A DNA stretch of 64,000 nt from Fibrobacteria bacterium (GTDB lineage: Bacteria > Fibrobacterota > Fibrobacteria > UBA11236): the NCBI GenBank assembly GCA_043745805.1, contig JAYTSD010000006.1, forward strand, positions 64,001-128,000, given 5' to 3'. The notes beneath the pieces were generated by a model. The model saw nothing but the letters and a program-made list of their open reading frames with translations, did no database searches and had not been told where the DNA came from. Each line of letters opens with the position of its first letter. Position 1 is the stretch's first letter. Positions 22,570 through 39,099 of this stretch are shown piece after piece. The position numbers were made by a program, and so were the translations under genes.

Positions 22570-22913
22570 TTAAGCGCGGTGAAATTTGGTGGGCGGATTT
22601 ACCCGATCCGATTGGATCTGAGCCAGGTTATGCACGACCAGTACTAATTATACAATCTGATGAATTTAATCGTAGCGTCATTGATACCATTATTGTTGCT
22701 GCCTTAACCAGTAATTTAAAACTTGCTCGTGCTCCAGGTAACGTAGAAGTTTCTGCAAAAAAAACCGGATTATCTAAAAACTCAATTATTAATATCTCGC
22801 AACTTTTAACGCTGGATAAAACATTTTTAACGAAAAAAGTTAGAGCCTTAGATAAGGAAAGTTTTGTGCAGGTTGAAGATGGTTTACGTTTGGTATTGGG
22901 ATTAATGTATTAA
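22563..22913 (+). CDS. PemK/MazF family endoribonuclease toxin
   Basis: KRGEIWWADL..GSEPGYARPVLIIQSD.FN, LTS and SQLLTLDK. Confidence 0.92.
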   Translation: MVIKRGEIWWADLPDPIGSEPGYARPVLIIQSDEFNRSVIDTIIVAALTSNLKLARAPGNVEVSAKKTGLSKNSIINISQLLTLDKTFLTKKVRALDKESFVQVEDGLRLVLGLMY

Positions 22914-23657
22914 ACTTGCAGCCTTCCTAGCCACTCCTATATAAGATAACAGTAGCGAGGGTGTAAATTTAAACGTAAAATCCTCCGGTACAATTCCTGT
23001 TCGCAGCATTTCCCAAAAAGCTTTTTTCTGGAAGTCGGGACGTAACCCTAAAATTTCCTCTACCTGCATTTCATTCTGCAAACAATATTTTTTCATTTCC
23101 TTAGGCTTTATAAAGAGAGGAAGTATATGCATATGCTTGGGCGTGTTTTTTACAAACCATTCCAAGCCTTTGATAATAATCAGCCAAGCCAAAAAATTGC
23201 GATTAAAAGTATGAAAGAAAAACAATCCTCGCGGCTTAAGCAAGCGTGCAGCTTCAGCTACAATCAATGTAGGGTATTCCACATGCTCCAAAAAATCCAT
23301 CGCAGATACGAAGTCGAAAGAGGAATCACGATAGGGCAAATGATAGGCATCGGCCTGTTGATAGGTAATATTTATTTCGCTGATTTGTGTATTAGCCAAT
23401 TTCAAAGTGGACAATGAAAAATCACAACCGATAGATTTAATATTTTGTTTAGCCAACTCTCTTGACAAAAAGCCTGCTCCGCAGCCTATGTCCAACACCA
23501 AAGGTGACGAGTTAAAATTTTCGGCTTTAATTTTTTCAATGATCCAGGCCTGTTTTAATTTTCCTTCAGCCCGTAATAAAGCCACGGGATCATTTTGGGC
23601 ATTTAACCAGCGAACGCCAAGCGAATCATAAAAACTATTGTTGATTTTTGCGGACAC
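22902..23657 (-). CDS. UbiG-like SAM-dependent O-methyltransferase
   Basis: VLDIGCGAGFL, MDFLEHV, LKPRGLFFFHTFNR and FIKPKE. Confidence 0.82.
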   Translation of the reverse strand: MSAKINNSFYDSLGVRWLNAQNDPVALLRAEGKLKQAWIIEKIKAENFNSSPLVLDIGCGAGFLSRELAKQNIKSIGCDFSLSTLKLANTQISEINITYQQADAYHLPYRDSSFDFVSAMDFLEHVEYPTLIVAEAARLLKPRGLFFFHTFNRNFLAWLIIIKGLEWFVKNTPKHMHILPLFIKPKEMKKYCLQNEMQVEEILGLRPDFQKKAFWEMLRTGIVPEDFTFKFTPSLLLSYIGVARKAASLIH

Positions 23658-24123
23658 GAGTTTTCCAAAAATTCCAATATCCTATTTGATAAAGTAAAAA
23701 TAGGCTTCCTAAAATTATTTGTGTTTGCAGAAAGGCGTAAAGAATATTTTTTTGGGCAAGAGAAAAAATATTTGCATACTGTACAAGTCCGGCCAAAACT
23801 AGTTGCATCACGTGTAGGGAATATAAAACACCATGCAATTGCTTTTCACCTTGGTTACAAAAGCGTGCATGGATGTGCATATCTTTGAATACAAAAATTA
23901 TGGAAAAAATTGCTGCGGTCCAATAAAATCCTGAGTGTTGAGGGCCTGAGTCAAGAAGGATAAAAGCCAAACAAAATAAATAAGTTACCGTATCCGCAGG
24001 GTGACCTAAGCGTTCCCATGTAGGCAAATGGCGCTGATGATGAAAATGAAACTCATCCCAAGCCATAGCCACATTATGTAAAAGAAATGGTAACAGTATC
24101 CAATAGGTATAGAAAAAACTCAT
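23635..24123 (-). CDS. His-rich integral membrane protein of unknown function in the PKS operon
   Basis: Four to five hydrophobic segments; DEFHFHHQR, GHPADT, DMHIH and E..LH motifs; overlaps the methyltransferase start. Confidence 0.6.
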   Translation of the reverse strand: MSFFYTYWILLPFLLHNVAMAWDEFHFHHQRHLPTWERLGHPADTVTYLFCLAFILLDSGPQHSGFYWTAAIFSIIFVFKDMHIHARFCNQGEKQLHGVLYSLHVMQLVLAGLVQYANIFSLAQKNILYAFLQTQIILGSLFLLYQIGYWNFWKTRVRKNQQ

Positions 24124-24134
24124 TCTACATTAAA

Positions 24135-25271
24135 TTAATATTTGCGTAACAAGCAACCATATACCGTTAAGCCTGGTCCAAAGGCTAAGCTCACAATAGG
24201 CGTTCCTGAAGGGATGGACGAATCTTCAGCAATTAATTGCCAAACATGTGGTAGTGTTGCGGAAGACATATTGCCATATTGAAATAATACAGCCTTACTG
24301 GCAGAGACTTGTTCGGGTTTTAAATTTAAGGTTTCGGCGACTTTGTCGATGATTCTTGGACCGCCGGGATGAATAGCAAATAAGGCACGAGCTAAAAGCT
24401 CTTTGGGCAATGCAGACTGTGCCCACAAATTATTTACAAAAGCTTCAATGGTTTTAGCAATAATATCCGGCACTTCGCGGGATAAGAGCATTTCAAAACC
24501 CGCAGCACCTAGGCCCCAGCCAATTGCGGAAATGGAATTGGGAATAATTTCCTCCGATAAGGCCAATATTTCTAAAGATTGTGCGCTAGGCTGCGCATGC
24601 AAAGAATATTTGATGAAGCCATCGGCAAAAAGACTTTGTACCACCAATTGTTCCGGCGTATGCAAGCTAGGGTTTAAATGTAATGTGCAAAGTTCCGTAT
24701 GCACAATATCAATATGCGGCTCCGTGGTGGAGAGTAAGCCTACACCCATTCGAATGGCTGGCATAGAGGCATAGCAACCCATGTGATAGGCATGCAATAC
24801 GCCCGTAATTGCTCCCCAACCGCGTTGCATTACAGTTTTTTGCACCGCGCTGGGCGAAACATATCCGGTACAGGTAACATGAATGATACGATTAACTGGC
24901 GAGGCATTGTCGGGATAAAATTTTTGCAAAATATCTTCGGTTACTTCTGCAAAAACTTGCATACGTTGCGCCATATCCATGCCCGTAGCATTTTCACGCA
25001 AACGGAAAATCCGCATTTCATCCCAATTCGTATGTAAAAAATCATCTAGGTCGGCGCCACGACTGCCTAAGGCTAAAGGATTGGGACCAAAGCGCGCAAT
25101 GTAGCGGCGCATTTTCTTAAGAAACTCTTCACGATCGAACGTTACGCCTTGCAAGCGGGTTTCTTCAGCTTGAGTATGAGCTTGCGCTAGCCATTCTGCA
25201 CATTGTGCATAATCGCCTTCATGTTGTGGGCGTAGTCTATGAAAGCCGGAGAGGTAGGTAGATGTTTGCAT
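24135..25271 (-). CDS. Type III polyketide synthase (chalcone/stilbene synthase-like)
   Basis: Catalytic triad HMGCYA (Cys), IHPGG (His) and GNMSSA (Asn); LFADG; AFGPGL. Confidence 0.92.
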   Translation of the reverse strand: MQTSTYLSGFHRLRPQHEGDYAQCAEWLAQAHTQAEETRLQGVTFDREEFLKKMRRYIARFGPNPLALGSRGADLDDFLHTNWDEMRIFRLRENATGMDMAQRMQVFAEVTEDILQKFYPDNASPVNRIIHVTCTGYVSPSAVQKTVMQRGWGAITGVLHAYHMGCYASMPAIRMGVGLLSTTEPHIDIVHTELCTLHLNPSLHTPEQLVVQSLFADGFIKYSLHAQPSAQSLEILALSEEIIPNSISAIGWGLGAAGFEMLLSREVPDIIAKTIEAFVNNLWAQSALPKELLARALFAIHPGGPRIIDKVAETLNLKPEQVSASKAVLFQYGNMSSATLPHVWQLIAEDSSIPSGTPIVSLAFGPGLTVYGCLLRKY

Positions 25272-25360: not shown

Positions 25361-26329
25361 TTAATTTTTGCGCGAGTAGAAAAATTTGCCTATCAGTTTA
25401 TTTTCTTGTTGAAGAAAATAAATACCGGAAGAGGCATTCATCTGAGCGGAGTTTTTTCCATTCCAAGCATACGTATAACCGATAGGATAAAGCATACTCA
25501 CCTTATGTCCAAATATATCGAGCAATACCAGAGGCGCTAAGGATTTTTGATTTTCAGCTAAACGAATATTAATGAACTCACCAGATTGTGCAGCGGAGAA
25601 ATTATTTGCATGAAGTGATTTGAATGAATTTGCATGGTTGTGAATAGAAACCGCTGGAGTGGGTAGCGTATCGAATTCGGCTTTGATCAATTGATATTTA
25701 ATTTGACCCTTGACATTTGCATTAAAAACTCGGCTATCCCAAGCGCCCTTTAATAAACCCATTAAAGAAGCAGAATCGGGGCTGGTAATAATGTAGGACA
25801 AGTAAGAACCACTTTCCGAAGTTAAGCCACTAGTGGGATTAGTAGTAATGGTTTTTAATGTGGTGGTACCTTGCCATCGCGTAAAATACTTTGATCCCGA
25901 GTCCCGTCCGATGATTTCATCACTCGTTAAATTGCCGCTAGGTGTATGGGTTAAGCGAAACCAAAATTCATAATGCGTATCGGCCAAGCGCATGACGCTT
26001 CCATCATTTAAAACCACCTTTACGCCGGGATCCAATACGGTTTTTAAAACATCATGTTTTAGGCGCATTTTGTAATAAACATTTTTTTGAGTTTCGGAGC
26101 ATGCTCCCTCCCAATTACTTAAAATTTGATAGTTGATACTATCGGATAGCAATGCCATATTGCTTAAATCGGAGTTTAATAACTTACTTTCATCTAAAAC
26201 GGGAGTGTTGTGATCCGTTCCGGTTAAAATCATTTGCTTGGCAGTTTGTAGATTAAAAGTTTTGTCGCATAGAAAAGCAGCACCCCATTGGGTAAACGTT
26301 AAAACGATTAAAAGGGATACTAATTTCAT
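25361..26329 (-). CDS. Secreted hypothetical protein with C-terminal FlgD-Ig/T9SS-CTD-like tail
   Basis: Signal peptide; tail LDIFGHKV..WNGKN...SSGIYFL. Confidence 0.55.
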   Translation of the reverse strand: MKLVSLLIVLTFTQWGAAFLCDKTFNLQTAKQMILTGTDHNTPVLDESKLLNSDLSNMALLSDSINYQILSNWEGACSETQKNVYYKMRLKHDVLKTVLDPGVKVVLNDGSVMRLADTHYEFWFRLTHTPSGNLTSDEIIGRDSGSKYFTRWQGTTTLKTITTNPTSGLTSESGSYLSYIITSPDSASLMGLLKGAWDSRVFNANVKGQIKYQLIKAEFDTLPTPAVSIHNHANSFKSLHANNFSAAQSGEFINIRLAENQKSLAPLVLLDIFGHKVSMLYPIGYTYAWNGKNSAQMNASSGIYFLQQENKLIGKFFYSRKN

Positions 26330-26423: not shown

Positions 26424-27527
26424 GTGAAAACGCATTTTTTATCCTCAGCAAAATCCAAAAAAACCTTGATCTTTTGTCCTATTGGACTTGGCAATTTTAT
26501 TATGGCGACGCCGGCATTCCTTTTTTTAAGTGAAAATTTAGGGCGCAAAAACCTTTATCTATTAGCTTTAAAGCCCTCAATCGAAGCTTTGGCTAAAGAA
26601 AGCGGTTGCTTTCAAGAAGTTTTTTGTTGGGATCCCGATAAACAAGGATTAGCGATGGGTTTGCAAACTTTGCATAAAATTCGGGCGGAAAAATTTGCTT
26701 ATTCTTTGGCTTTATTTCCTAGTTCACATTGGAAATTTTCGCTCTTTGCTTTTATGGCAGGCATTCGGCAGAGATGGGGTTTTGGCTATGCGCATACACA
26801 ATGGCCGCGCTATTTGCAGCAAGTTTCTTTAAAGCTTGACGTTGACGCGCATGATACCCTACAAAATATGCATTTGGCCGAAACTTTTTTAGGGACCAAG
26901 AATTTGACTCCCGCAAAATTATTTTTTCCTCTTAAGCCCAGCCCTATAAGCCTATCTTCCGCAGCAAGCGAAATTTATTTTGTATGTCATCCTGGATCGA
27001 GTGCCGAACGGGGAATGGATGAAAAGCGTTTGCCTGCCGAACAATATGGTCAATTAATTTTGAAATTACATTCAGAATTAGGATTTAAATGTTTATTAAT
27101 CGGTGGACTGGAAGAGGAGAATTTACGTGCGGAAGTGAAGAAAATCGCCGCTTCAGCTCTAGTGGAATGGCCCTCGAAAAACCTTTCAGAATTAGCATGG
27201 CTAATACAAAACAGTCAGTTTTTTCTCGGCAATGATTCTGGGCTTATGCATATGGCCGTGGCTTTGGATAAGCGCTGCGTAGTTTTCTTTGGGCCTACGG
27301 ATGAAAAACGCACCGGTCCTTTTGAATACTGGGTGACACAAAATGGTTTACCTAAACATCTAATAATACGTCGCGAGGATTTGCAATGTGCTCCGTGTTG
27401 GACTATTCGAACCATAGGAAAAAATCCACCTTGTATACACAACGACACCCGTTGTCTACAGAACTTTCCTTTGCAAGCTTATTGGCCGCGGCTAAAATTA
27501 TTTTTACAAAATCTAAACAAGACTTAG
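26424..27527 (+). CDS. Glycosyltransferase family 9 (heptosyltransferase-like)
   Basis: GLGNFIMATP, HPGS, GNDSGLMHMAVAL, FGPT and C.PC...C...C tail. Confidence 0.88.
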   Translation: MKTHFLSSAKSKKTLIFCPIGLGNFIMATPAFLFLSENLGRKNLYLLALKPSIEALAKESGCFQEVFCWDPDKQGLAMGLQTLHKIRAEKFAYSLALFPSSHWKFSLFAFMAGIRQRWGFGYAHTQWPRYLQQVSLKLDVDAHDTLQNMHLAETFLGTKNLTPAKLFFPLKPSPISLSSAASEIYFVCHPGSSAERGMDEKRLPAEQYGQLILKLHSELGFKCLLIGGLEEENLRAEVKKIAASALVEWPSKNLSELAWLIQNSQFFLGNDSGLMHMAVALDKRCVVFFGPTDEKRTGPFEYWVTQNGLPKHLIIRREDLQCAPCWTIRTIGKNPPCIHNDTRCLQNFPLQAYWPRLKLFLQNLNKT

Positions 27528-27688: not shown

Positions 27689-28879
27689 TTGATGAACGTA
27701 TTGCCTCCAAGGAAAAATTTTTGCTTTTTAATTCCTTCTTTGACCAGGCTTTTTTATGGATTATTGCTGGGCCTAATTATTTTTACATCGCAAGTTGTGG
27801 CTGCGGATCTTGGAACCGATATCATTACGGTTACCGATACCTCTTTGATACGTAGACTTTGGCAACATGCTTATCCCGATTCAACTCCTCCGACGGGGGA
27901 CTATCGGGTATGGTTCATTGCAGCGGACAGTAATCAAGAAAATGAAGCCGTTGCTTTTTTGCATAACGGCACCGAAATTTATCGCGATGATGGCACATAT
28001 GATGAATTTCAAAATGCGCGCGCGCGCGCTGGAGTCGAAGGGGAAAATGGAATACATGATCCCTTTGCGGCCTCTGCTTCCTTTTCCATTTGGGATGAAT
28101 TAAAAGCTACACCTAAAAAATGGGAAAGCTGGATGATTTGGCCCGCGGGATTAAAAATGTCCGCTGGAATGGCATTGGGTGGAATGCGTGGCGCCGATCC
28201 TGAAATGGAAAGACATTATGCCGCGACTTGGGAAGAAAATCTCTTTCATTATTTTTTATGTGGTGCGGGATTTCGTTGGGATGAATATGGTGGTGGATTA
28301 AATCGTAGCTTGCATTTATACGATACCTCAAGTAATGCCGATTGGTTTACCAGTTATGCTGGCTTTACTTTTGAACTTGGCGCTCCAGGCATACTTTATC
28401 AATTGGAAACAGCAGGACATCCCTTTCCTGAATATTATTGGTTGGAAAAACCCTTACCAATTATTCGTAGTCATAGCAAAGGTGTCGCTATAAGTGCTTG
28501 GGATGATAGCAGCTATGATAGCAATTGGCGACAAAAAATTACTTTGCGTTTAGGAGCCATACGCTATACCCTGCTTTTTGATTTTGATAGTTATCGCTCT
28601 TTAGTACAGCATTTTGGATTAGAGGATTTGTCGATTGGTAGCGGACACTATGGCATAGGACTTTTGGTCGCTCGGCATATTCTAGCACCTACCCTGTATT
28701 TGGAGTTATTTCCCACCGCATTTCTTTTCGCAAAATCAACCGCTTATCCGGTGGCACTCAAAACCGCCTCCGTACATTTTGATTTTCAATTTGCCGGACC
28801 CAGCACTTTATATTTAGGCCTGTCTTTACGATTACATATTGATAATCCCATTATGCATTTTTCCGGAGAAAAATTATGA
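27689..28879 (+). CDS. Exported hypothetical protein, probable outer-membrane beta-strand-rich protein; first gene of a 4-gene operon
   Basis: Signal-like segment ending VVA-A; Trp/Tyr-rich alternating strands; stop overlaps the next ATG (ATGA). Start uncertain. Confidence 0.5.
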   Translation: MMNVLPPRKNFCFLIPSLTRLFYGLLLGLIIFTSQVVAADLGTDIITVTDTSLIRRLWQHAYPDSTPPTGDYRVWFIAADSNQENEAVAFLHNGTEIYRDDGTYDEFQNARARAGVEGENGIHDPFAASASFSIWDELKATPKKWESWMIWPAGLKMSAGMALGGMRGADPEMERHYAATWEENLFHYFLCGAGFRWDEYGGGLNRSLHLYDTSSNADWFTSYAGFTFELGAPGILYQLETAGHPFPEYYWLEKPLPIIRSHSKGVAISAWDDSSYDSNWRQKITLRLGAIRYTLLFDFDSYRSLVQHFGLEDLSIGSGHYGIGLLVARHILAPTLYLELFPTAFLFAKSTAYPVALKTASVHFDFQFAGPSTLYLGLSLRLHIDNPIMHFSGEKL

Positions 28880-29952
28880 GTCCCGAAGCCCTTTATCGAC
28901 TATCCGAAGATCCTCTTAAGCAAGGTGAACGTGCATTAGATAAAATTCGTCGTCTAGCTTTTATTGCGACTTTCTTCCCCATACCTATAGTAAGCATGTC
29001 CGTAATTGGATTTTTTTGGTTTCAACCCCATTGGTATATGGATCCCTTTATGGTTTTGTTACTGGGTGTATTTACGATTGGCCAAACTTTAATTTTCACG
29101 CAACTTAGAGGCGTGATAAAAGGAGTTAAGAATACCGCTAAAGTTATTTTGGTTTTGCAAAATGCGGGAGATGAGCCTGACTTAGAAAAATTACGTGGAG
29201 AACTCAGAGAAAAAGTATCTCCCGGACATTTGCGTGATTTAGTATTGCGCTGGATTGATTTGGGATTACGCGGAGAAATAAAAGGCTCCGAAGCTTTGAT
29301 GGATAACTCTTCCGATCGACGCTCGTTAACGGATTTGCGAAATATGTCGGTACATGTTTCCCTCAATCGCACCACCCTAAAGCTCGGATTTTTAGGCACT
29401 TTAATTGGTTTAGTGATGACTTTCCCGCCAATGAAAAGAGCCATTTTAGGTTTAGGCAGCAGTGATGGGGAGTTGCGTTTTATTCATGATATTGCCGAAG
29501 CTATTGATGGCGATCAATATGCCATCATCGCTACTTTAGTAGCCACGGCACTTTCCGTTTTAATTGAATTGGTTACCGTACAGATTTTAGAAAGAGCTTT
29601 GGGTGGATTTGATTTAGTAAATAGCCATATTATCGATTGGAATTTAACGCGCTTGCAGCCTTGGATTCGTAAAAAATATGGTCCCGATGCTAAAGAGAGT
29701 CATTTAAAATCTGGCCAATTGCATTTGGAAGAGCGCCTATTGCAAGCGCAAGCAGAGATGGATAAAAATATTGGGCATATGCTCGATGCCATGGCGCGTA
29801 CTAGTAAACATTTAGAGTCCATCACCGAAGCTCAAAAAACCATTGGTCGCCGCGTTTTGGAATTAACGGAGTTTGAAAAACAATATCGCAGTTTTATACA
29901 GACTAAGCAAGAAGCTGCGGCTCCCACAACTATGCGGACGGAGAAGGGTTAA
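28876..29952 (+). CDS. MotA/TolQ/ExbB-type ion-channel subunit with C-terminal coiled-coil tail
   Basis: Two N-terminal TMs; LGFLGTLIGLVMTF and AIIATLVATALSV channel helices; helical tail of about 120 aa. Confidence 0.75.
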   Translation: MSPEALYRLSEDPLKQGERALDKIRRLAFIATFFPIPIVSMSVIGFFWFQPHWYMDPFMVLLLGVFTIGQTLIFTQLRGVIKGVKNTAKVILVLQNAGDEPDLEKLRGELREKVSPGHLRDLVLRWIDLGLRGEIKGSEALMDNSSDRRSLTDLRNMSVHVSLNRTTLKLGFLGTLIGLVMTFPPMKRAILGLGSSDGELRFIHDIAEAIDGDQYAIIATLVATALSVLIELVTVQILERALGGFDLVNSHIIDWNLTRLQPWIRKKYGPDAKESHLKSGQLHLEERLLQAQAEMDKNIGHMLDAMARTSKHLESITEAQKTIGRRVLELTEFEKQYRSFIQTKQEAAAPTTMRTEKG

Positions 29953-30500
29953 TGAGTCGCTATCGCAGGGCTCGTCTCGATTTGGGCGAAGCGCTTTCCT
30001 TTGAAGATGTGCTCACGGTAATTACCGTATTATTGGTGTTACGTATGGTATTTATGGTGCCATTAGTGAATATTGACAAAGCGAAAACTGTGTCGGCTCG
30101 TCGCGACAGCTATTGGCCGCAAGAAGCCGGTTGGGTGCTTAGTCATCCCAAAGATTCCATCGAGATTCAGGCTTATCGCTCCGCTTTTGATTTAGATGGA
30201 CGCACGGTAAAGATTTCCAAAGAAATTAATAATGGACGAGAGGATATTTACCTAGAAGCTGTTAGCCCCGATAGTAGTTTGTTTATTCTCAAACAATATC
30301 CAACGACTTCACAGTTTATCGCGATGAATGTGCAAGGGCCAGGTCACGCCTTAAGTTTCCGTCGTGGCAAATTATTGTGGAGTGAGGTAGAAAAGGAATG
30401 GTTTGTCGCTGCCGATAGCATTGATTATGGCAATCATGCGCCGAGTAAAGCGATGGAAAATGAATTTCGCGCTTGGACAAAGAAACATCGGGGTTACTAA
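29952..30500 (+). CDS. ExbD/TolR/MotB-like single-TM partner
   Basis: Basic N-terminus, then LSFEDVLTVITVLLVL with Asp19 at the TM start; translationally coupled (TAATG) to the channel gene. Confidence 0.6.
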   Translation: MSRYRRARLDLGEALSFEDVLTVITVLLVLRMVFMVPLVNIDKAKTVSARRDSYWPQEAGWVLSHPKDSIEIQAYRSAFDLDGRTVKISKEINNGREDIYLEAVSPDSSLFILKQYPTTSQFIAMNVQGPGHALSFRRGKLLWSEVEKEWFVAADSIDYGNHAPSKAMENEFRAWTKKHRGY

Positions 30501-30510
30501 GGTGCGAGGC

Positions 30511-32916
30511 GTGAAAAAACATTTACTTAATCCCATGCATCGATTTATTGCTTTTAGCTTATTTATGCTAAATGTTTTTTGTTCCCTGAGTAGTGCAAAA
30601 AATGGCAATGAACCTTTAAATCATTTTGGATTAGCTGCCTTAACCGATGAGACTATTGCGGGACGTATTACGACACGTTTCAAAGCGCATGGCAAGCCGA
30701 TATTTATGATTCAAGACCTTAATGTGGGTTTGAGTCAAGGGGATATTATGCGCTTTCAAGACAAGGCTGTGTTAATTGATGCCGATGTATGGCAAACTTT
30801 ACAAGATGAAAATGCTTTACAGCATTTGAATCCTGCGCCCTTGCTGCGCGTGCAAGCGAAGGCCAGTGGAGTGGCTTGGGAAAATCGCGCCAAAATGGTA
30901 AGTTCACCGCGCGAAAAAAAAGCTTATTTATTGGGTTCAGAATTAATAAAAATTTTGGAAGACAATTTTGGCGGCGCTCCCGCACGAGAACAAATGGTCA
31001 TGACTTTTGATGGCCCTAATTTAGTGCTCATGGCGCCGGTTGAGTTTTATGATCAATTACGTTATACGCCGGTTAAACGCATTCCTTCTTCGGGCACGCC
31101 AAATTTTATTTCCCTTCCTCCCCAAGGCGCTTTTGTCGATCAAGATTTTTACTGGCAAGCTTGGGCGATAGATCCCACTGAGCCGGCAGGTAACTTGCGA
31201 TATACTATAACCGGAGAGTTACCTAAGGGCCTAGTGTGGGACGCTTCCTCTCATTCCTTAAGAGGAAAACCCTCGGTGGAAGGTCGTTTCAAATTAGTGG
31301 TTGAAGTGCGAAACAAAGGAAATGCCAATGATACACAAGGCATAATCATTGCGATACAAAATAATCATGCCCCATATTTAGCCCAAAGCCCAAAGGCTCT
31401 GGCGGTGGTGGGACAAAAGTGGTTTTATCATGCTGATGCGGTGGATAGAGATCATGCCGGTGAAACCATAAAAATACTCACACAACCTTTACCACCAGGC
31501 ATGGAATACGATTCCATTGCTCGAATTTTTACTTGGATACCGGCAGATACCTTAAGCGGCAAAGAATTTCCCTTTGCCTTGAGATTAATGGATCCTTTGA
31601 ATGCGCATACTGATCAACGCTTTACTTTAAAAGTTATTCCTGCCAAGGACTTGGCCTATACCAAAGATATTCACATCAATATTCCTTGGGATACCTTACA
31701 AGAAGGCCATAGTTATACTTGGGAAGCCGGAACTTCGGCAGCGGCTTGGTCGGAACAGGGGATAAGTCTTGTACAAGTTACAGGTGATGATAGTACCGAT
31801 TATACTGAAGGGACGGTGCATTTAAAGCCCATGCAAAGCGGTCAAATGAAATTGCAATTTCACTTTGAAGTATTGGGACAACCCTTATTGCAAGCTTTGA
31901 CTATTCCAGTAAAAAGAAATTTATCGCCTTATTTTGCAAGTACTTTAGGCGTCGGTGAATTTTTAACCGATCAAACGGCCATGTATAGGCCTGTGGCGGT
32001 AGATCCGGAAAATGATCCCATTACTTTAAATGTAAGACTTCCTGAAAATAGCCCTCTGTTTTGGAATGGCGTGGATTTGGAATTATATACCAAAAAGCCC
32101 GGTCTATATGCCGCTGAATTTTCCGCTATTGATAATCAAGGACATGGAGCAAGGCAGGCTATTGTTTATCGCGTGAATGCACGAGAAAGAAAAACGGCAT
32201 GGGCTTTGGAAAATCGACTGCAAGCCGGTTTAAGCACTTGGACTTTAAGTGCTGATTTTGGAACTGGTCGATTGGGCTTATTCACTCCCGATTTATCGCA
32301 TGTCGTATCTTGGTCGAATTGGAAGAATCAAGAATGGCCTTATATATTTTTTGGAGGAAATCTATTAGGTTCGGAAGCCGAGAAAAAAGGCAATCGTTTA
32401 TGGATGGACTTAGGATTTACGCTGAGAGTACCGAATGGAAAAATTGCAACTGGTGGTTTATACGGGCGATTCTTAGGCGAATGGACTTTTCCTGGCAAGC
32501 TGCTCACTAAAGTGGAAAGTGAATTACAAGGTTTTGTTCATCAAGGTTTATTACTCGTAGATTCCTCAGGTGTGCATTTAACGTTTGGCTCGGGAATATT
32601 GGAATTTGGCGACAAATATGGTCCGCTCATCGATCAAATTTTACGCGATGCGACCGCGCCTAAAAATGCCGTATTCTTTACGCGTATTGAAGGATGGTGT
32701 TGGTTGGGATCGGGCTTTTGGGCAGGTCCTGGACTGTGGCGCGAAGACTTTCCTATGGCACGTCGTTTCGATGAAAGAGTGGGTGGTGGCTTACGCTTTC
32801 AAGGGAAGGCCGACAAAGCTTTGGCCTCCAATAGTTTCCGTGTAGGATGGGGTCCGGCAGGTGCGGGTTGGTCCATGTATTGGTCGGCGCGCATTTCTTT
32901 GAACTCGCCTTTTTAA
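30511..32916 (+). CDS. Large exported protein with He_PIG/cadherin-like Ig repeats and a barrel-like C-terminus
   Basis: Signal peptide; repeats LPKGLVWD..LRGKP, LPPGMEYD..FTWIP and AVDPENDPI; amphipathic strands ending WSARISLNSPF. Start is GTG 30511 or ATG 30535. Confidence 0.65.
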   Translation: MKKHLLNPMHRFIAFSLFMLNVFCSLSSAKNGNEPLNHFGLAALTDETIAGRITTRFKAHGKPIFMIQDLNVGLSQGDIMRFQDKAVLIDADVWQTLQDENALQHLNPAPLLRVQAKASGVAWENRAKMVSSPREKKAYLLGSELIKILEDNFGGAPAREQMVMTFDGPNLVLMAPVEFYDQLRYTPVKRIPSSGTPNFISLPPQGAFVDQDFYWQAWAIDPTEPAGNLRYTITGELPKGLVWDASSHSLRGKPSVEGRFKLVVEVRNKGNANDTQGIIIAIQNNHAPYLAQSPKALAVVGQKWFYHADAVDRDHAGETIKILTQPLPPGMEYDSIARIFTWIPADTLSGKEFPFALRLMDPLNAHTDQRFTLKVIPAKDLAYTKDIHINIPWDTLQEGHSYTWEAGTSAAAWSEQGISLVQVTGDDSTDYTEGTVHLKPMQSGQMKLQFHFEVLGQPLLQALTIPVKRNLSPYFASTLGVGEFLTDQTAMYRPVAVDPENDPITLNVRLPENSPLFWNGVDLELYTKKPGLYAAEFSAIDNQGHGARQAIVYRVNARERKTAWALENRLQAGLSTWTLSADFGTGRLGLFTPDLSHVVSWSNWKNQEWPYIFFGGNLLGSEAEKKGNRLWMDLGFTLRVPNGKIATGGLYGRFLGEWTFPGKLLTKVESELQGFVHQGLLLVDSSGVHLTFGSGILEFGDKYGPLIDQILRDATAPKNAVFFTRIEGWCWLGSGFWAGPGLWREDFPMARRFDERVGGGLRFQGKADKALASNSFRVGWGPAGAGWSMYWSARISLNSPF

Positions 32917-32928
32917 AGCTTAGAGGCG

Positions 32929-34287
32929 TTAATCTACCTTAGCTTCTAATTGCATAGAGATACCATTTTTTTTGAGCATATCGTAAAGCGTGGGGCGCGT
33001 AAGTCCTGAGACCTTTGCAGCTAAGCTGATATTGCCTTTACTTTGGCGCAAAGCATTGAGTAAAAATTTACGATCGAACATTTCTCGCGCTTCTTTATAC
33101 GACATGGTACGGAAGGATGTTTCCGATAATTGCAAATCTTCGGATTCAATAACTTGATTAACACAAGTAATAGCAGCGCGATTTAATTTGTTTTCGAGTT
33201 CACGTACATTTCCGGGCCAAGTATAATTTTGAATTTGTTGTTCGGCGCGGCGACTGAGACGCAATTTACTTTTGTTGAATTTAATGCGATTGGTTTCCAA
33301 AATTCTTTTGGCAATTAATAACACATCGCCGGAACGTTCACGTAAGGGAGGTAAATGAATTTCAAATTCACTGAGACGATAGTACAAATCCGTACGCATA
33401 GACGTATTGTCTTTTTCCGATAAATTCAATTTATTAGTAGCGGCAATGATACGTACATCTAAAGGACGAAAGAGCGTATCGCCCACTCTTTGTAATTTTT
33501 TGTCTTGTAAGAAGCGTAATAGTTTTACTTGCAAATTCAGTGGCATATCGCCAATTTCATCTAAAAACAAGGTGCCTTTATGGGAGGATTCAATCAATCC
33601 GATTTTATCATTATTCGCGCCGGTAAATGCACCGCGCACATAACCAAATAGTTCACTTTCCATAAGGCTTTCGGGAATGGAACCGCAATTAATGGGTACA
33701 AAAATTTCATTGCGTCGTAGACTATGATAATGTATAGCACGCGCACACAATTCTTTGCCCGTTCCACTTTCACCCGTTAACAAAACCGACACATCCGTAG
33801 GCGCTAATTTTTGAATATGATCAAAAATAATTTTCATGGGATCGGAATTACCGATCATTAAATAATCCTTATTCCCGACGGGACCCTGCACGGGTGTTGT
33901 CGTTTCCGGAGGACGCTCCAAGGCATTTAAACGAGCCGCACGGCCTAAAACAACTTTGAGTTCCTCAATATCAATAGGTTTTTGCAAATAGTCAAAAGCG
34001 CCTCTATCCACCGCTTGATGACCTAAGGACAAATTGGTATTAGAAGTGATAATTACAATTTTTGCTTGTCGACTTTCCGTTAAAATTGCATCGATGATTT
34101 CTAATCCGCGGTCGGGTTTATTTTCTAGGCCTAAATCGAGGCAGAGTAACAAAATTTGTTCGCGCCGCAGAGTGCGCATGCAACTGTCTAAACTATCGGC
34201 TTCAAAAATTTCATAGTCGCTATTTAATGCCCATTTCATTTGCTCCCGCAAGCCGACATTGTCTTCAACAAGTAATAATTTTCTCAT
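32929..34287 (-). CDS. prsR: sigma54-dependent response regulator, PrsR (PEP-CTERM box) type
   Basis: Receiver LDLGL; GESGTGKE, GAFTGA, WPGNVRELEN; Fis HTH ending RPTLYDML; adjacent to a PrsK-like kinase. Confidence 0.75.
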   Translation of the reverse strand: MRKLLLVEDNVGLREQMKWALNSDYEIFEADSLDSCMRTLRREQILLLCLDLGLENKPDRGLEIIDAILTESRQAKIVIITSNTNLSLGHQAVDRGAFDYLQKPIDIEELKVVLGRAARLNALERPPETTTPVQGPVGNKDYLMIGNSDPMKIIFDHIQKLAPTDVSVLLTGESGTGKELCARAIHYHSLRRNEIFVPINCGSIPESLMESELFGYVRGAFTGANNDKIGLIESSHKGTLFLDEIGDMPLNLQVKLLRFLQDKKLQRVGDTLFRPLDVRIIAATNKLNLSEKDNTSMRTDLYYRLSEFEIHLPPLRERSGDVLLIAKRILETNRIKFNKSKLRLSRRAEQQIQNYTWPGNVRELENKLNRAAITCVNQVIESEDLQLSETSFRTMSYKEAREMFDRKFLLNALRQSKGNISLAAKVSGLTRPTLYDMLKKNGISMQLEAKVD

Positions 34288-36464
34288 GGTAGAATGGCCT
34301 TTAACTGCTCTGGCTTTTGACTAAAAAGTAAAATAATAAAGGTGGTTCCCTTATTTAATTCGGATTGACATAAAAGTCGTCCGCCCATTTTTTCAATTAA
34401 GGTTTTGCTTTGATATAAACCAATGCCTACCCCTTTTTCTTTAGTTGTGGCAAAGGGTTGAAAAAGTTTTTCGCGGACAAAATTAGCATCCATACCTCCA
34501 CCATTATCCTGCACTAAAATATAAGCATCGAAGGTGGAAAAAAATTGATCAGCTCCTCCAAAGATGGTTTTTAATTGTGGGCGCGTAAGGGCATCGAGTG
34601 GTCCATAGTTGATATGTAATTCCCCTTTGTATTGCATGGCATCGAGAGCATTTTGGAATAAATTTTTTATAACAAAAAATAAGGCTTGCCTATCCATCAG
34701 GGCCTGCACGGAATTTTTAGCAGAAAATGCTAATTGCAATTCAGGAATTTCTTTGACACTTGAGCTATTGATCACGTCTTCTAAAAGATTTTGCAGAGGA
34801 AAAGAGGTTAAAATTAAATCCTCAGATTTAGGGGCCATGGAAAATTTATCAATTAAAATTTGTAAACTGGTGGCGCAACTTTTAATGGACATGAGCATGC
34901 TGATTTGAAAGGAAGGATTGTTTATATTGCGCTCGGCATTTTTAACTAATAGTGAAAGCGTAGCGATTTGGTTTTTAATATCATGAATAATAAATGAAGC
35001 TACATGCAAAAAAGATTCAAATTGTTTTTGCTCGATACGTTCTTTTAATACTCGATTTTTAAATAAAGCGTCGCCGATAGAACTGGTAAAGACCGCAATT
35101 AAAGTTAAGTCTTCGCTATCGAAGGATATTTTACGACCTCCCTTTGAGGCTAATAGACCTACTAATAAATCATCGTGGAAAATAGGGAATAAAGCGTCGA
35201 CGCCTAAAGTTTTTAAAAGACGATCATGGCGTATTTTTTCGGTTGCCTCGGTGCGGAAAGAATCAACATGAAAAAAATCTAAGGGCTGGGGATTTTTTCT
35301 AAAAAATTCAACGACTAAGCTATCTCCCGATAAAACCACATCATGTAAAGAATCTGCTTCTTTATTTTCATGCAAATAAAAATTTCCATCTTGCCAATTT
35401 AAAATGAAAAAATACGCATCATCTACTGTTACCGAATATTTCATATTTTCCACAAGTTCAGTTAAAGCCCCATCTACATTGGCTTCCGACATCATAGTTT
35501 TATGCAATCGAAAAAACTGCTCTTGATAATCATATTTGCGAGAATAGAATTGTTCATTTACAAAGCGAATAATATGGCGACGCATAGTTCCGGAACCTAT
35601 GCCGAGTAGAGAAAAAAAACAAACAGAAAAAATGATCAAGGAATTTTCGAAATAATTGAAATCGATTTGTAGCCAGCGAAATAATGCAGCAGTAATGGCC
35701 ACACCCAAAAAAATGGCTCCAGTAAGTAACATGGTTGCGGAAGTATATACCGTGTTGCGAGGAATAGAAATGCGCTCTGATCCTAAGCGATAACGCAATA
35801 GCCCTAATAAGAAAACGGGATAACAAATGCCTTGAATTATCGCAGTAACTTCAATGAAACGTGGATATAGACTAGTATAGAGCAGGCTTCCTGCGAATAA
35901 GAAATTATGTGCTATGGCCATACAGGCGAGTGAAGAAAAACATAGCCGCGCAATTTTACGCTGATAGGGCTGAGCAAAATGATATAGTGTTTCGAGGCGA
36001 TACAGTAAGTAAATACCTAATAGTAGTAGCGTCGTGGGAACGAATAATCCAAAACTGTGAAAATAAAAACGATAAACTCCTTCATGCTCGGCTAAGGCAA
36101 ATTGACGAGGTAAAAATGATATTATGGCAGCGAGTAATGCCAACAACTGTAAAAATGTAAGGGCTGAAAAAACCGGTTTATGACTTTTCTCGCCCCCGAA
36201 AAAATTACGTAATACTTGTAATAATCCAGCATAAATGCAGCACTGCAAAACTAAGAAAATTCGAAAGCAAAAATATTGCGAAGAAAAAGAAGTGCTGGAA
36301 AGATAAGCTTTATCCACCCATAACTGAGCGCTTAAAACAATACCTAAAAACAATAGTAAGCGTCTTTGCCTACCGGTCGAAGACTTGATTTGAACTAAAT
36401 ATGCCAAGCTCATATTGAGTATGGTGATTAGACTAATAAAAAGGGTAAACGTTATCAAAGCCAT
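34284..36464 (-). CDS. prsK: Multi-TM sensor histidine kinase, PrsK type
   Basis: About 9 TMs, FYSRKYDY, GAF-like region, H-box FIIHDIKN, NALDAM, DNGGGM and GVGIGLYQ. Confidence 0.78.
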   Translation of the reverse strand: MALITFTLFISLITILNMSLAYLVQIKSSTGRQRRLLLFLGIVLSAQLWVDKAYLSSTSFSSQYFCFRIFLVLQCCIYAGLLQVLRNFFGGEKSHKPVFSALTFLQLLALLAAIISFLPRQFALAEHEGVYRFYFHSFGLFVPTTLLLLGIYLLYRLETLYHFAQPYQRKIARLCFSSLACMAIAHNFLFAGSLLYTSLYPRFIEVTAIIQGICYPVFLLGLLRYRLGSERISIPRNTVYTSATMLLTGAIFLGVAITAALFRWLQIDFNYFENSLIIFSVCFFSLLGIGSGTMRRHIIRFVNEQFYSRKYDYQEQFFRLHKTMMSEANVDGALTELVENMKYSVTVDDAYFFILNWQDGNFYLHENKEADSLHDVVLSGDSLVVEFFRKNPQPLDFFHVDSFRTEATEKIRHDRLLKTLGVDALFPIFHDDLLVGLLASKGGRKISFDSEDLTLIAVFTSSIGDALFKNRVLKERIEQKQFESFLHVASFIIHDIKNQIATLSLLVKNAERNINNPSFQISMLMSIKSCATSLQILIDKFSMAPKSEDLILTSFPLQNLLEDVINSSSVKEIPELQLAFSAKNSVQALMDRQALFFVIKNLFQNALDAMQYKGELHINYGPLDALTRPQLKTIFGGADQFFSTFDAYILVQDNGGGMDANFVREKLFQPFATTKEKGVGIGLYQSKTLIEKMGGRLLCQSELNKGTTFIILLFSQKPEQLKAILP

Positions 36465-36522
36465 TCTTTCTAATCAAAAGGAGGATAACTGTTACGGCAA
36501 TATAAAAACAACATGCCGGGTA

Positions 36523-38931
36523 TTAAGGCTTAGGTTGAACCTGATAATAATAAGAATATTTTTTGTAACGATTTGGTTCAAATGGAGAGGTTTGCACGCA
36601 ATTTAAAATACTGGCTATTTTAATGTCTCTTTCGCGCATGATACTCAATCCTTCGCGCGCTTCTGAAACGGAGGTGTGACCGGAACGGCAAACATATACC
36701 ACGCCATCAGCTACTTCGATTAAAGCAAAAGGCTCAGGCGTAATCATCACGGGTGGGGTATCTAAAATCACCACATCAAATTGTTCGCGACACATTTTTA
36801 CAAAGGCTTTAAACTTGGTGGAGCTTACTAATTCACCGGCATTCGGATTAGAGGCTTTGCGAGCAACAATAACGAGATCTTTTTGAACAGTAGTTTGGAA
36901 TAGTAATGTTGAGGCCTCTAAGAATTGATTTTCATTCAATTCCGATTGACTGAGTAATTCGTCAATTCCAGTATGCACATTTAAGGCAAAGATGCGATGA
37001 ATGCGGCCTAAGCGAAAATCGGCATCGATCAATAATGTTTTTTTCCCTTTGCGAGCAAAGGCCATCGCTAAGTTACTCGCGCAAGTGGATTTTCCATCGT
37101 GAGGTTGCGTGGACGTTACAATCAGGCAGAGTTTATCGGGATCCTCGGGATTACGGAAAAAATTTTCACATTCTTCACGAATCAATCTAAAAGACTCCAC
37201 ATCTTCTAAGCTATTTGCTTTACCATAAAACAATAATAGCGGATCCACTTCACCAGTTAAGCGACGGTATCCGCGGGCCGTTTTGCGCTCTCCTACTGAA
37301 CCCAAAGGCTTGAGATCAAGGAATTTTTTCAAATCATTTTTTGACCAAATTTTTTGGAAAAGTAATTGCGACAAAGCAAAAAAAGCAAGCACTACAAAAA
37401 ATAGAATCCCAACTGATGCGCCAGCTATAATTATTCTGTTTTTGAAAGAGGGGGATTCGTAAAAAGCAGGTCTAGCTTCATCAACAATCGTAACTTTAAA
37501 AAACTCGGATCCCGTGGTTAATTTTGCACGACTATAACTGGCTTGTAATTTGTCATATATATCTTGATTGTTTTTGTTTGCGGTATTTAAACGATCGAGC
37601 TCAAGCTCAACCTTCACTGAAGGGCGAAAGGTTCGGCCAGAAGAAGCTGTGCTGGCCTTCACGGAGGCATCCACTTCTTTTTGCGACATGGATCGCAATA
37701 AGGAGTTGTAGGTTAGTTGAATATCGGCGTAAATGGATTCTCTTTGCTTTTGTATTTCAGTGATTTTGGGATGGGTAGGACCTAATGACGCTTTAAATTC
37801 ATTTTCTTTTCTATCGAGTCCCGCAAGCGAAGCGCGCATGATACCTGCTTTAGATTCTCCTGCTTCCACCATAGCGCCAAGCATTTCTTGTGCCCAAAAG
37901 CCTTTGTCTTCACCGCTGCTATTTGGCATTGCCGCCATAATATTCTGTAATTTTTGTTGTGCCGATTTTATGCGGTCGCGTTCGCCGCGTAATTCCAAGT
38001 AAGCTAGGTTATCGCCTGTTGAGGGTGTTTCACCACGATGCAAAAGTTCTGGATGAAGGCTATAGAATTGGCTAAGCTCATCTTGACTTTTGTCGAGTTT
38101 ACTTTTTGCAACATCTAAATCTTTTTCCATCTGTGCAAGAATGCTTACATCTTGAACTTCGGTAGTTCCATAATAAATTTGCAAGAAATCTTCGCGCAAT
38201 TGATTCAAAATATCGGCAACCATCCAAGGGTCACTGTCTTTGTAACTCACTAAATAATTATCCTCACCTAAAGCTTTCACCATGAGATTTTTTTTCATAT
38301 TCTCAATCAAGCGGTTAGACTCTCGCATTACCAATTCCAATTTAAAATTGCGTGCGGTATTCAAAAAACTTTCTGTGAATTCGAGTTTTAAATCTTTAAG
38401 CTCTAAAATATTATTGGCATGGATGGGCCCTTTGAAGAGACGGTAACCCTTGTTCTGTCCAGGGGGTGCGAAAATGACTTCTACGTTGCGATAATTATCG
38501 AAATTAAGGGTATAGACTCCACGACTGAGGTTTTCCCCGTAGGAGATGTTTTTAAAAGTTTGTTTGCGAAAAACATCTGTGGTATTGATACGTATAAGCA
38601 ACCCTAATTTTTTAGCCGTTGATTCGAGTACTTGATAACTCCCAAAAATACTGATGATACTCGAACTTTTATTGATAGCAATATCGCGCATCATATTTGT
38701 TTGCGCACCCACCACATTGGGAAAACGTAAAATGGTTTGTGCAGTATAACTTTTGGGTAAATTAAAAAGCGATAAGAGTACACCTGTAGGAATAGCGACA
38801 ATTAACCAGGTGATTAAAAAAGTTATTCGCCTTAACCATAGCACATGGAAAATGGTAGAAAGGCCATACATTTTTCCGGCTGTGGGTGTTTCAAAATCAT
38901 CGGATGGGAAAGAGGAGCGATTAGCCTTCAT
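36523..38931 (-). CDS. Polysaccharide co-polymerase / BY-kinase (Wzc-like)
   Basis: Two TMs around a coiled-coil region; Walker A STQPHDGKST, IDADFR, ILDTPP; C-terminal Tyr cluster YKKYSYYY. Confidence 0.9.
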   Translation of the reverse strand: MKANRSSFPSDDFETPTAGKMYGLSTIFHVLWLRRITFLITWLIVAIPTGVLLSLFNLPKSYTAQTILRFPNVVGAQTNMMRDIAINKSSSIISIFGSYQVLESTAKKLGLLIRINTTDVFRKQTFKNISYGENLSRGVYTLNFDNYRNVEVIFAPPGQNKGYRLFKGPIHANNILELKDLKLEFTESFLNTARNFKLELVMRESNRLIENMKKNLMVKALGEDNYLVSYKDSDPWMVADILNQLREDFLQIYYGTTEVQDVSILAQMEKDLDVAKSKLDKSQDELSQFYSLHPELLHRGETPSTGDNLAYLELRGERDRIKSAQQKLQNIMAAMPNSSGEDKGFWAQEMLGAMVEAGESKAGIMRASLAGLDRKENEFKASLGPTHPKITEIQKQRESIYADIQLTYNSLLRSMSQKEVDASVKASTASSGRTFRPSVKVELELDRLNTANKNNQDIYDKLQASYSRAKLTTGSEFFKVTIVDEARPAFYESPSFKNRIIIAGASVGILFFVVLAFFALSQLLFQKIWSKNDLKKFLDLKPLGSVGERKTARGYRRLTGEVDPLLLFYGKANSLEDVESFRLIREECENFFRNPEDPDKLCLIVTSTQPHDGKSTCASNLAMAFARKGKKTLLIDADFRLGRIHRIFALNVHTGIDELLSQSELNENQFLEASTLLFQTTVQKDLVIVARKASNPNAGELVSSTKFKAFVKMCREQFDVVILDTPPVMITPEPFALIEVADGVVYVCRSGHTSVSEAREGLSIMRERDIKIASILNCVQTSPFEPNRYKKYSYYYQVQPKP

Positions 38932-39099
38932 TAATTCTCGACATAAAGTTTAATTCAAAAGAGTTTAACCTTTTGTGGGTAAGATGGGAAGGATTCTTCA
39001 TAGGAGCAAAATACTTTTTACTAAAGGAAGACGCAATGCTTACTCAATGTTTAGTTGGATTTCCCAAAATTTAATAGGAGTAAGTTACTTTTATCTTAA

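Follow-up and report, generated by a model that had tools for sequence, protein, structure and literature searches.

A stretch of 64,000 nucleotides of contig JAYTSD010000006.1 from a Fibrobacteria bacterium (assembly GCA_043745805.1; hereafter the window, with all coordinates counted from its first letter) contains, at positions 27689-32916, four same-strand open reading frames (ORFs), which we call g1 to g4 and which are confirmed by the ORF list and by direct reading of the DNA. The subject of this work is the envelope module that these genes appear to encode, namely a putative inner-membrane pair, g2 and g3, that recalls the ion-driven motors of the MotA/ExbB type, and two exported proteins, g1 and g4, each of which ends in a predicted outer-membrane β-barrel.

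All four genes lie on the forward strand. The first, g1 (27692..28879), codes for an exported outer-membrane protein of 395 amino acids (aa), as judged from the ORF and from a model built with AlphaFold2 (AF2); translation may begin in frame either at TTG 27689, for a product of 396 aa, or one codon later at ATG 27692, and the start context makes the latter most likely. It is followed by g2 (28876..29952, 358 aa), the putative inner-membrane A subunit, so assigned from its ORF, its hydropathy and the PF01618 matches of its homologs, and by g3 (29952..30500, 182 aa), the putative single-pass inner-membrane B subunit, so assigned from its ORF, its hydropathy and the alignment of its homologs. 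The last gene, g4 (30511..32916, 801 aa from GTG 30511, with in-frame alternatives at GTG 30502 and ATG 30535), codes for the second exported outer-membrane protein, as indicated by its AF2 model and by a He_PIG domain. Read from the DNA, the junctions are an ATGA overlap between g1 and g2, a TAATG overlap between g2 and g3, and a gap of 10 nucleotides (nt) before GTG 30511; g1-g4 are translationally coupled, exactly as the initial annotation of the window had described them. In a scan against shuffled sequences, neither sigma-70-like sites (11 found, 15.5 expected) nor terminator-like sites (8 found, 8.1 expected) were enriched, and the gap upstream of g1 contains no sigma-54-like site by the usual consensus. 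Four DNA runs contain this stretch, all of them from one sediment-metagenome study.

Conservation and distribution of the module

A survey of loci in one genome per prokaryote species produced 47 loci, all of them in metagenome-assembled genomes (MAGs). The record titles place 43 of them in Fibrobacterota lineages and three in Bifidobacterium or Bifidobacteriales; the remaining title says no more than 'bacterium'. The three loci with bifidobacterial titles (L014, L022 and L027) carry the full syntenic module, with g2 40-54% identical to that of the window, and their labels look like misassigned taxonomy rather than transfer. With tblastn, g2 is found at all 47 loci, and g3 and g4 at 45 loci each, both misses being in either case contigs that end first. 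The same search found g1 at 38 loci, and position together with profile adds seven more, for 45 of 47; the seven added ORFs are on the same strand, are 352-472 aa long, end at the start of g2, and match the g1 profile with E-values from 1e-64 to 7e-25, while the profile matched no other entry of the 282-ORF flank set in which these seven were included. Of the two loci left without g1, one is at a contig edge and at the other none was found.

The surroundings of the module behave differently from the module itself. The flank genes of the window are absent from the equivalent positions in other loci, and flank gene families are common to at most 17 of the 47 loci, the commonest being PfkB kinase, IMPDH and rhomboid; the PfkB kinase gene lies upstream of the module in 17 of the 47. 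The order of the four genes recurs across the 47 loci while the flanks differ, so that the view of them as a conserved unit stands. There are four MAGs with two loci each, and each of these loci holds the gene set as far as its contig reaches, which suggests that the module was duplicated as a unit. At four of the 47 loci, g4 is closely followed on the same strand by a 513-aa ORF with no Pfam match (median gap 252 nt); in one of them (L036:10921-12462) this ORF starts 2 nt after g4, and it is possibly the fifth gene of that variant.

Within the phylum, 296 Fibrobacterota genomes were scanned at E≤1e-20, of which 55 have the g2 family and the other 241 have no match; among high-quality genomes the count is 36 of 172 (these phylum tallies include one unpublished genome, G254). 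The distribution is uneven: the family to which the window genome belongs has it in 27 of 31 genomes and a second family in 10 of 12, and the counts are 7 of 46 and 2 of 151 in two large families and 0 of 101 in the largest genus. The module is also kept in small genomes, of 1.9-2.6 megabases (Mb) by their listed, rounded sizes.

Predicted products of the four genes

By hydropathy, g2 has strong hydrophobic segments at residues 27-45, 57-75 and 217-235, in addition to a weaker third transmembrane (TM) segment, TM3, and the chain appears to be laid out as two pairs of TM helices, joined by a cytoplasmic loop of about 85 aa and followed by a cytoplasmic tail of 114 aa. In an alignment of 22 diverse g2 relatives (A1), the most conserved stretch of the whole module is formed by TM3, the periplasmic loop and TM4 (29371..29595, residues 166-240), with a mean majority-residue fraction of 0.89 in TM3, 0.83 in the loop and 0.76 in TM4. 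The sequence GFLGTLIGL occupies residues 171-179, and G171, F172, G174, T175, L176, G178, T182, T220 and E231 are invariant in all 22 sequences, with T224 nearly so. In particular, g2 shares with the MotA/ExbB family a penultimate TM helix rich in Gly and Thr, followed by a last TM helix with a conserved Thr.

Homologs of g2 connect this stretch to PF01618, the profile of the MotA/ExbB family. The profile is matched at E≤1 by 19 of the 22 aligned homologs, with a best E-value of 1.6e-7, and when ten homologs were scanned singly, seven matched at E≤0.01 and two exceeded the gathering score (31.5 and 24.1 bits). All these matches are confined to profile positions 14-77 of 127, that is, to the TM3 part. 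Comparison of g2 with seven canonical ExbB/MotA proteins of the same genome by hhalign gives a probability of 21% with alignment A1 and of 46% with an alignment of 113 sequences. A search of 5.8 billion proteins recovered 162 relatives of g2, every organism-named one of which is from Fibrobacterota, and some of which have been named ExbB/TolQ by JGI; a broader search that started from the g2 alignment brought up the same set again, Fibrobacterota only, with 137 proteins. A match of g2 to the arginine/agmatine antiporter profile (20.6 bits against a cut-off of 574) was put down to TM-helix composition. In our view, g2 is a very distant member of the MotA/ExbB family or else a sister to it, a relationship visible in sequence at the ion-path helix and extended from there to the remainder of the protein; the initial recognition of g2 as MotA/ExbB-like by its GFLGTLIGL signature is supported by the PF01618 matches of the homologs and by hhalign.

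The cytoplasmic tail of g2 (29608..29949, residues 245-358) ends in a conserved motif, in which Q320, R326, E334, Y337, R338 and F340 are invariant in alignment A1. Its length in 96 homologs is bimodal, ranging from 106 to 169 aa with clusters at about 110-135 and about 160-169. The tail, which had been described as a coiled coil, does follow TM4 over 114 aa, but a coiled coil is not confirmed, as a crude heptad score was reached by 56 of 300 shuffles; library scans gave only weak matches to coiled-coil proteins.

The product of g3 consists of a basic N-terminus, one hydrophobic segment at residues 11-44 (hydropathy), and a periplasmic domain of about 140 aa. An alignment of 24 g3 homologs (A2) shows that position 18 is a nearly invariant Glu or Asp at the cytoplasmic end of the TM helix; in the window it is Glu18, with its codon at 30003..30005, and we regard it as a candidate ion-binding site by sequence conservation. 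A conserved Gly12 precedes the hydrophobic helix. The single TM helix and the Asp19 pointed out at the outset are both there, but position 19 varies among the 24 homologs (D, E, S, T or N), and the conserved acid is Glu18. The layout of g3 is that of a B subunit, with a single N-terminal TM helix, an acidic residue near its cytoplasmic end, and a gene directly after that of the A subunit.

There are no matches for g3 in Pfam, NCBIfam or PADLOC at E≤1. The OmpA-like domain (PF00691) is likewise unmatched at that threshold, in agreement with the earlier remark that g3 carries no peptidoglycan-binding motif of this kind. The profile of alignment A2, run with HMMER against 1.84 billion representative proteins, finds 57 at E≤0.001, of which 56 are at E≤1e-10; against PDB sequences it finds nothing relevant, and a search of the ESM Atlas with g3 itself gave no usable match. 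At the level of these profile searches, g3 belongs to a small family that stands by itself, unconnected to ExbD, TolR or MotB.

The AF2 model of g1 (mean predicted local distance difference test score, pLDDT, 80.4; predicted template modelling score, pTM, 0.68) begins with a signal peptide and a small α/β N-domain, which a helical linker of low confidence joins to a 12-strand β-barrel. The N-domain (27818..28027, residues 44-113 in the 396-aa reading) runs strand-helix-strand-strand-strand-helix, and contains the only invariant residues of the g1 family, G94 and T95 (alignment A6). The predicted barrel (28139..28846, residues 151-386) was compared with known structures using VIA-align; it is closest to AIDA-I (4mee, Z 15.1, root-mean-square deviation (rmsd) 3.0 over 190 aligned residues) and KdgM (4pr7, Z 15.0), followed by BrkA (Z 14.8), FapF (14.7), Hbp (14.6), NalP (14.4) and the COG4313 channel (14.0), and Foldseek gives in addition porins, OmpG and, again, FapF. 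In sequence space g1 is isolated, with no Pfam, NCBIfam or PADLOC match at E≤1 and a single-sequence search that returned itself only. The model and the structure matches agree with the initial description of g1 as a barrel-like exported protein.

The product of g4 is larger and, by its AF2 model (mean pLDDT 81.5), more elaborate; it comprises a signal peptide, an α/β N-domain, four immunoglobulin (Ig)-like domains and a C-terminal 12-strand barrel. The N-domain (30622..31065, residues 38-185) is the best-conserved part, with a conservation of 0.60, compared to 0.41-0.54 in the Ig domains and 0.44 in the barrel, and it holds most of the invariant or nearly invariant columns of the g4 alignment (A5), which makes it a candidate docking site for an inner-membrane partner. 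The Ig/cadherin-like stalk (31093..32184, residues ~195-558) contains the single Pfam match of g4, a He_PIG Ig domain with E 8.8e-8; Foldseek and VIA-align relate its domains to SraP (4m00, Z 12.8) and also to cadherin- and dystroglycan-type domains, and the A5 profile finds SraP among PDB sequences with E 3.1e-12. The predicted barrel (32188..32913, residues 560-801) has a helix-bearing loop of 36 residues between strands 7 and 8 and ends in Phe, the C-terminal residue being F or Y in 13 of 33 g4 homologs. Its best matches by VIA-align are BrkA (3qq2, Z 13.0, rmsd 5.0, 192 aligned), KdgM (12.8), FapF (12.4), the COG4313 channel (12.0) and AIDA-I (11.7). The initial annotation was right to see here an Ig-repeat protein of about 800 aa, in which four Ig-like domains are recognizable, but it missed the barrel.

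Homology between g1 and g4 is not detected by hhalign (probability 0.3%), and in the models the secondary-structure elements of their N-domains follow one another in the same order. Both models alternate between long loops and short turns, as would be expected of barrels with periplasmic N-termini, and the N-terminal parts of both proteins would be periplasmic if strand 1 starts in the periplasm, as it does in known barrels. The predicted folds support the assignment of g1 and g4 as outer-membrane proteins; the early suggestion that outer-membrane proteins accompany the stator-like genes has gained from this, as both proteins end in predicted 12-strand barrels.

Proposed mechanism and competing explanations

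Motors of the MotA/ExbB type are known to drive flagella, gliding, Ton uptake and Tol-Pal, as well as type IX secretion and Zorya defence. Our reading of the locus, in which we place about even confidence, is that g1-g4 encode an ion-driven module of the cell envelope that has not been described before, is specific to Fibrobacterota and works on outer-membrane barrels. In such a module, g2 and g3 would be the ion-conducting unit, of the MotA/ExbB-with-MotB/ExbD kind and of 5:2 type, with g2 surrounding the TM helices of g3; this we infer because of what is known of the family of MotA/ExbB-type motors. Glu18 of g3 would be placed beside the Thr-rich TM3 and TM4 of g2, and would be protonated and deprotonated during ion flow, so that g3 would move relative to g2. 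The module would have neither a TonB/TolA-type adaptor nor a peptidoglycan anchor. From the outer membrane, g4 would hang a four-Ig stalk with a conserved head domain into the periplasm, and, as a rule of thumb, an Ig domain is about 4 nm long, so that a stalk of four such domains may come close to the inner membrane. Most likely, g3 would use its periplasmic domain to engage the N-domain of g4, of g1, or of both, passing the force of the motor to the barrels. The whole arrangement would look like an outer-membrane-anchored TonB in reverse.

In its most specific form, this reading describes an inverted Ton system, in which the orphan B subunit of an adaptor-free motor grips the head of g4 and/or the N-domain of g1, and opens, unplugs or moves the 12-strand barrels; it would be a trans-envelope machine of a new class, and we propose it tentatively, as less likely than not. 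As to the output of the module, the gating or unplugging of narrow barrels for outer-membrane transport is possible, if somewhat doubtful, and it is unlikely that the output is to move or tension a surface-linked protein for adhesion or gliding; outer-membrane tethering we judge unlikely to the same degree. Surface-protein display, adhesion, gliding and polymer export, the outputs put forward at the outset, have the standing of conjecture. When the periplasmic domain of g3 was paired with the two N-domains, those of g4 and g1, in complex prediction, the scores were 0.15 and 0.04 against a mark of 0.32, which is evidence neither way.

Several observations weigh against the ion-driven reading. 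The g2 protein of the window matches PF01618 with E 0.94 and 9.7 bits, where the Pfam cut-off is 22.9; no MotA, ExbB, TolQ or ZorA chain is found among PDB sequences with the profile of alignment A1 at E≤10; and the hhalign comparison with the ExbB/MotA proteins of the same genome aligns only 36-39 TM3 columns. For g3, homology to ExbD, TolR or MotB is undetected by Pfam, by the A2 profile, by hhalign or among PDB sequences, and the relation to these families suggested at the outset is not supported at the level of profiles; hhalign against the ExbD set of the same genome reports a probability of 5%, over 32 TM columns only. In the ESM Atlas, the nearest clusters to one g3 homolog (P0121) are TadE-like, at a score of only 0.85, which is weak. 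The g4 stalk is placed in the periplasm by inference, and the autotransporters, which are among the best matches of the barrel, expose their N-terminal parts; He_PIG and cadherin-like domains are, moreover, typical of surface proteins.

The last two points lead to the alternative that survives best, which we nevertheless consider rather unlikely. Here g1 and g4 would be autotransporter-like (type V) proteins, with g4 a surface adhesin whose retention, release or conformation is controlled by a g2/g3 channel, in the manner of Salmonella, where the MotAB-like SiiAB pair is reported to act on SiiE, a giant Ig-repeat adhesin. The β-domains of AIDA-I, BrkA, Hbp, NalP and EstA are among the best barrel matches, with Z of 11-15, but KdgM, FapF and the COG4313 barrels score as high, and there is no Pfam autotransporter match at E≤1 for g1 or g4. 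The order of an N-terminal passenger and a C-terminal 12-strand barrel is that of type Va, and g1 has its low-confidence helical linker directly before the barrel; in the g4 model, however, a mere 6 residues separate the last strand of Ig4 from strand 1 of the barrel, which leaves no pore-spanning linker. The Ig domains of g4 resemble those of the adhesin SraP (E 3.1e-12) and there is a faint match to 2yn3 (E 0.074), which we take to be a fragment of SiiE. Against this, conservation in g4 is highest in the distal N-domain, which would be unusual for the exposed tip of an adhesin, and the module, unlike Sii, has no type I secretion genes.

A second alternative would have the motor pull on g4 in order to hold or constrict the outer membrane, without transport, much like Tol-Pal in its integrity or tethering role. 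The composition of the module, which spans both membranes, is compatible with such a role, and so is its near-core status in some lineages (27 of 31 and 10 of 12 genomes) together with its retention in genomes of 1.9-2.6 Mb. However, a Tol-like cluster is already present in this genome, no protein of the module has a peptidoglycan-binding domain, and 241 of the 296 Fibrobacterota genomes, including all 101 of the largest genus, are without a match; we regard this alternative as quite improbable.

It is also possible, with a little less than that small probability, that g2 and g3 are no ion motor at all, and that the likeness of TM3 is convergent or a remnant, the pair serving as a static scaffold or a barrel assembly factor, with g3 perhaps pseudopilin-like. 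The limitation of the PF01618 similarity to about 50 residues and the missing homology of g3 to ExbD or MotB both speak for this, as do the TadE-like clusters nearest to the g3 homolog at a score of 0.85 and the conservation of Gly12 ahead of the helix. But a language-model score of 0.85 is within the range reached by shuffled proteins a third of the time, g3 has no TadE Pfam match, and Glu18 is 6 residues past Gly12, whereas in the Flp/TadE motif the Glu comes 5 residues after the Gly. The A-then-B gene overlap, the invariant Thr and Gly of TM3, and the conserved acidic TM residue, taken together, are a hallmark of the motor family and argue against a mere scaffold.

Finally, we consider it very improbable that the module is an anti-phage defence, of the Zorya type or another, that uses a MotAB-like sensor. 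The cytoplasmic tail of variable length that follows the MotA-like core of g2 does loosely resemble ZorA. However, g1-g4 have no PADLOC match at E≤1, genes for a nuclease, a helicase or any other effector are absent, g3 lacks a peptidoglycan-binding domain, and the proteins encoded alongside are outer-membrane barrels. The module is patchily distributed in the phylum but dense in certain families (27 of 31, 10 of 12), and related genomes have neighbours in common, such as the upstream PfkB kinase gene; both look like vertical inheritance rather than a defence island.

Genomic context and relation to known systems

On its left the module is flanked by a GT9 glycosyltransferase gene (26424-27527), and on its right, at 32929-40619, by genes for PrsR-like and PrsK-like proteins and a tyrosine autokinase, all three on the opposite strand, together with genes for an exosortase and EpsI. 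These are the GT9 and exosortase loci between which g1-g4 had been placed at the outset, and flank the module they do, but a functional link is without support; we draw none, because the flanks are not conserved with the module. The right-hand genes form a PEP-CTERM/exosortase locus that adjoins the module, with an exosortase above the cut-off of 8TM_EpsH, a Wzc-like tyrosine autokinase and EpsI. The PrsR-like sigma-54 response regulator (TIGR02915, 454.6 bits) and the PrsK-like histidine kinase (TIGR02916, 292.4 bits) are just under their equivalog cut-offs of 502.6 and 300, respectively. Further to the left, on the reverse strand, are a type III polyketide synthase-like gene (24135-25271; Chal_sti_synt_C, E 5.6e-24), adjoined by small membrane-protein ORFs at 22902-24123, with which it possibly forms an alkylresorcinol-type lipid cluster, and, between this gene and the GT9 gene, an exported protein of 322 aa (25361-26329) without a Pfam or NCBIfam match.

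The same genome encodes more familiar envelope systems on other contigs. It has 10 canonical matches to PF01618 and 9 to PF02472, nine TonB_C matches in total, with TonB_C matches next to the ExbB/ExbD clusters, and four TonB-dependent-receptor barrel matches; a Tol-like cluster, with adjacent ExbB/TolQ, ExbD/TolR, TonB_C and TolB_N matches; and a FliG match. Away from the module, there is also a canonical PF01618 match of MotA size. With Ton, Tol and flagellar sets thus present elsewhere in the genome, the module is an addition to the standard systems and no replacement for one of them. In one genus, nine genomes have the module and are without a FliG match, and because it is kept in these genomes we take it to be independent of the flagellum. 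A separate observation on the same genome (G000) is that three contigs (C43, C1 and C38) carry ExbB-like genes with a long N-terminal extension, 502-520 aa in length, each of which adjoins a normal-sized ExbB-like gene and an ExbD match, with a TonB_C match near each cluster.

Within the module itself, Pfam finds no TonB_C, TonB-dependent receptor or OmpA-like domain in g1-g4; g2 and g3 have no GldL or GldM match in Pfam or NCBIfam at E≤1; and g1-g4 have no match among PADLOC profiles at E≤1, with no Zorya effector gene among the flanks. The scans of the module and its flanks, together with the PADLOC result, agree with the initial statement that TonB/TolA, a TonB-dependent receptor and ZorC/D/E are absent here.

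We found no description of the module in the literature on MotAB, ExbBD, TolQR, GldLM and ZorAB, on Fibrobacterota stators, or on ExbB of Fibrobacter succinogenes. Two surveys from 2025, one of MotAB (PMC12505986) and one of force transducers (PMC12204202), never mention 'Fibrobacter' in their main texts, and the supplement of either may list such homologs. In F. succinogenes, FSU_0286 is annotated with an ExbB/MotA motif (Raut et al. 2019, PMC6851124); it was dropped as a lead, since the largest genus of the phylum has the g2 family in 0 of 101 genomes.

Each new partner set of such a motor has revealed another way of energising the cell envelope, and the B subunit of the g3 type is confined to 57 clusters among the 1.84 billion representative proteins. 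If the motor-like pair is really coupled to the barrels, the module would represent a third solution for energising the outer membrane, besides the rods of TonB/TolA and those of GldM/PorM, and would give 12-strand barrels an energised role. All 47 loci come from MAGs, so that experiments would call for a carrier that can be cultivated or for expression in another host.

Compared with known systems, the module shares with Zorya ZorA-ZorB a MotA-like core in g2 followed by a cytoplasmic tail of variable length, but it has no PADLOC match, no effector of the ZorC/D/E type and no peptidoglycan-binding B subunit, its partners are outer-membrane barrels, and the g2 tail is 106-169 aa long, whereas that of ZorA extends to several hundred residues. 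With MotA-MotB and PomA-PomB it shares the 2+2 arrangement of TM helices in g2, with a cytoplasmic loop from TM2 to TM3, a gene for the B subunit that comes after that for the A subunit, and, in the B subunit, an acidic residue where the TM helix begins; it differs from them in that g3 has no OmpA-like domain match and in that the module is kept in genomes without a FliG match. The Agl-Glt gliding machinery of Myxococcus and the SiiAB-SiiE system likewise combine a MotA/TolQ-like motor with outer-membrane barrels (Glt) or with an Ig-repeat surface protein (SiiE), and the module differs from them in having neither the TonB-like GltG/J, nor the tetratricopeptide-repeat (TPR) or cytoplasmic Glt components, nor type I secretion genes. 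The C-terminal domains of g1 and g4 share their predicted 12-strand fold with autotransporters, KdgM/NanC, FapF and COG4313 (Z 12-15), but have no barrel match in Pfam or among PDB sequences, and, to our knowledge, none of these barrel families is encoded with a MotA/ExbB-like pair.

The likeness to Ton and Tol is the closest. It includes a TM signature of the G-x-L-G-T-x-x-G type in g2, the gene for a single-pass B subunit with an acidic TM residue directly after it, an operon tied to outer-membrane barrels and, likely, the coupling of ion flow at the inner membrane to work at the outer membrane. The module differs from both systems in having no TonB/TolA adaptor, no 22-strand TonB-dependent receptor, no TolB and no Pal, in the four TM helices (MotA-like, 2+2) and long C-terminal tail of g2, and in the periplasmic domain of g3, which has no detectable homology to ExbD; its periplasm-spanning element, the Ig stalk of g4, is apparently anchored in the outer membrane, and its partners are 12-strand barrels. 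No described system fits the module, which falls outside Ton, Zorya, GldLM and MotAB and is most like the Ton/Tol type; what we rate as new is its partner set, in which an envelope pair of the ion-driven type, with a B subunit of no known family, is joined by two outer-membrane barrels.

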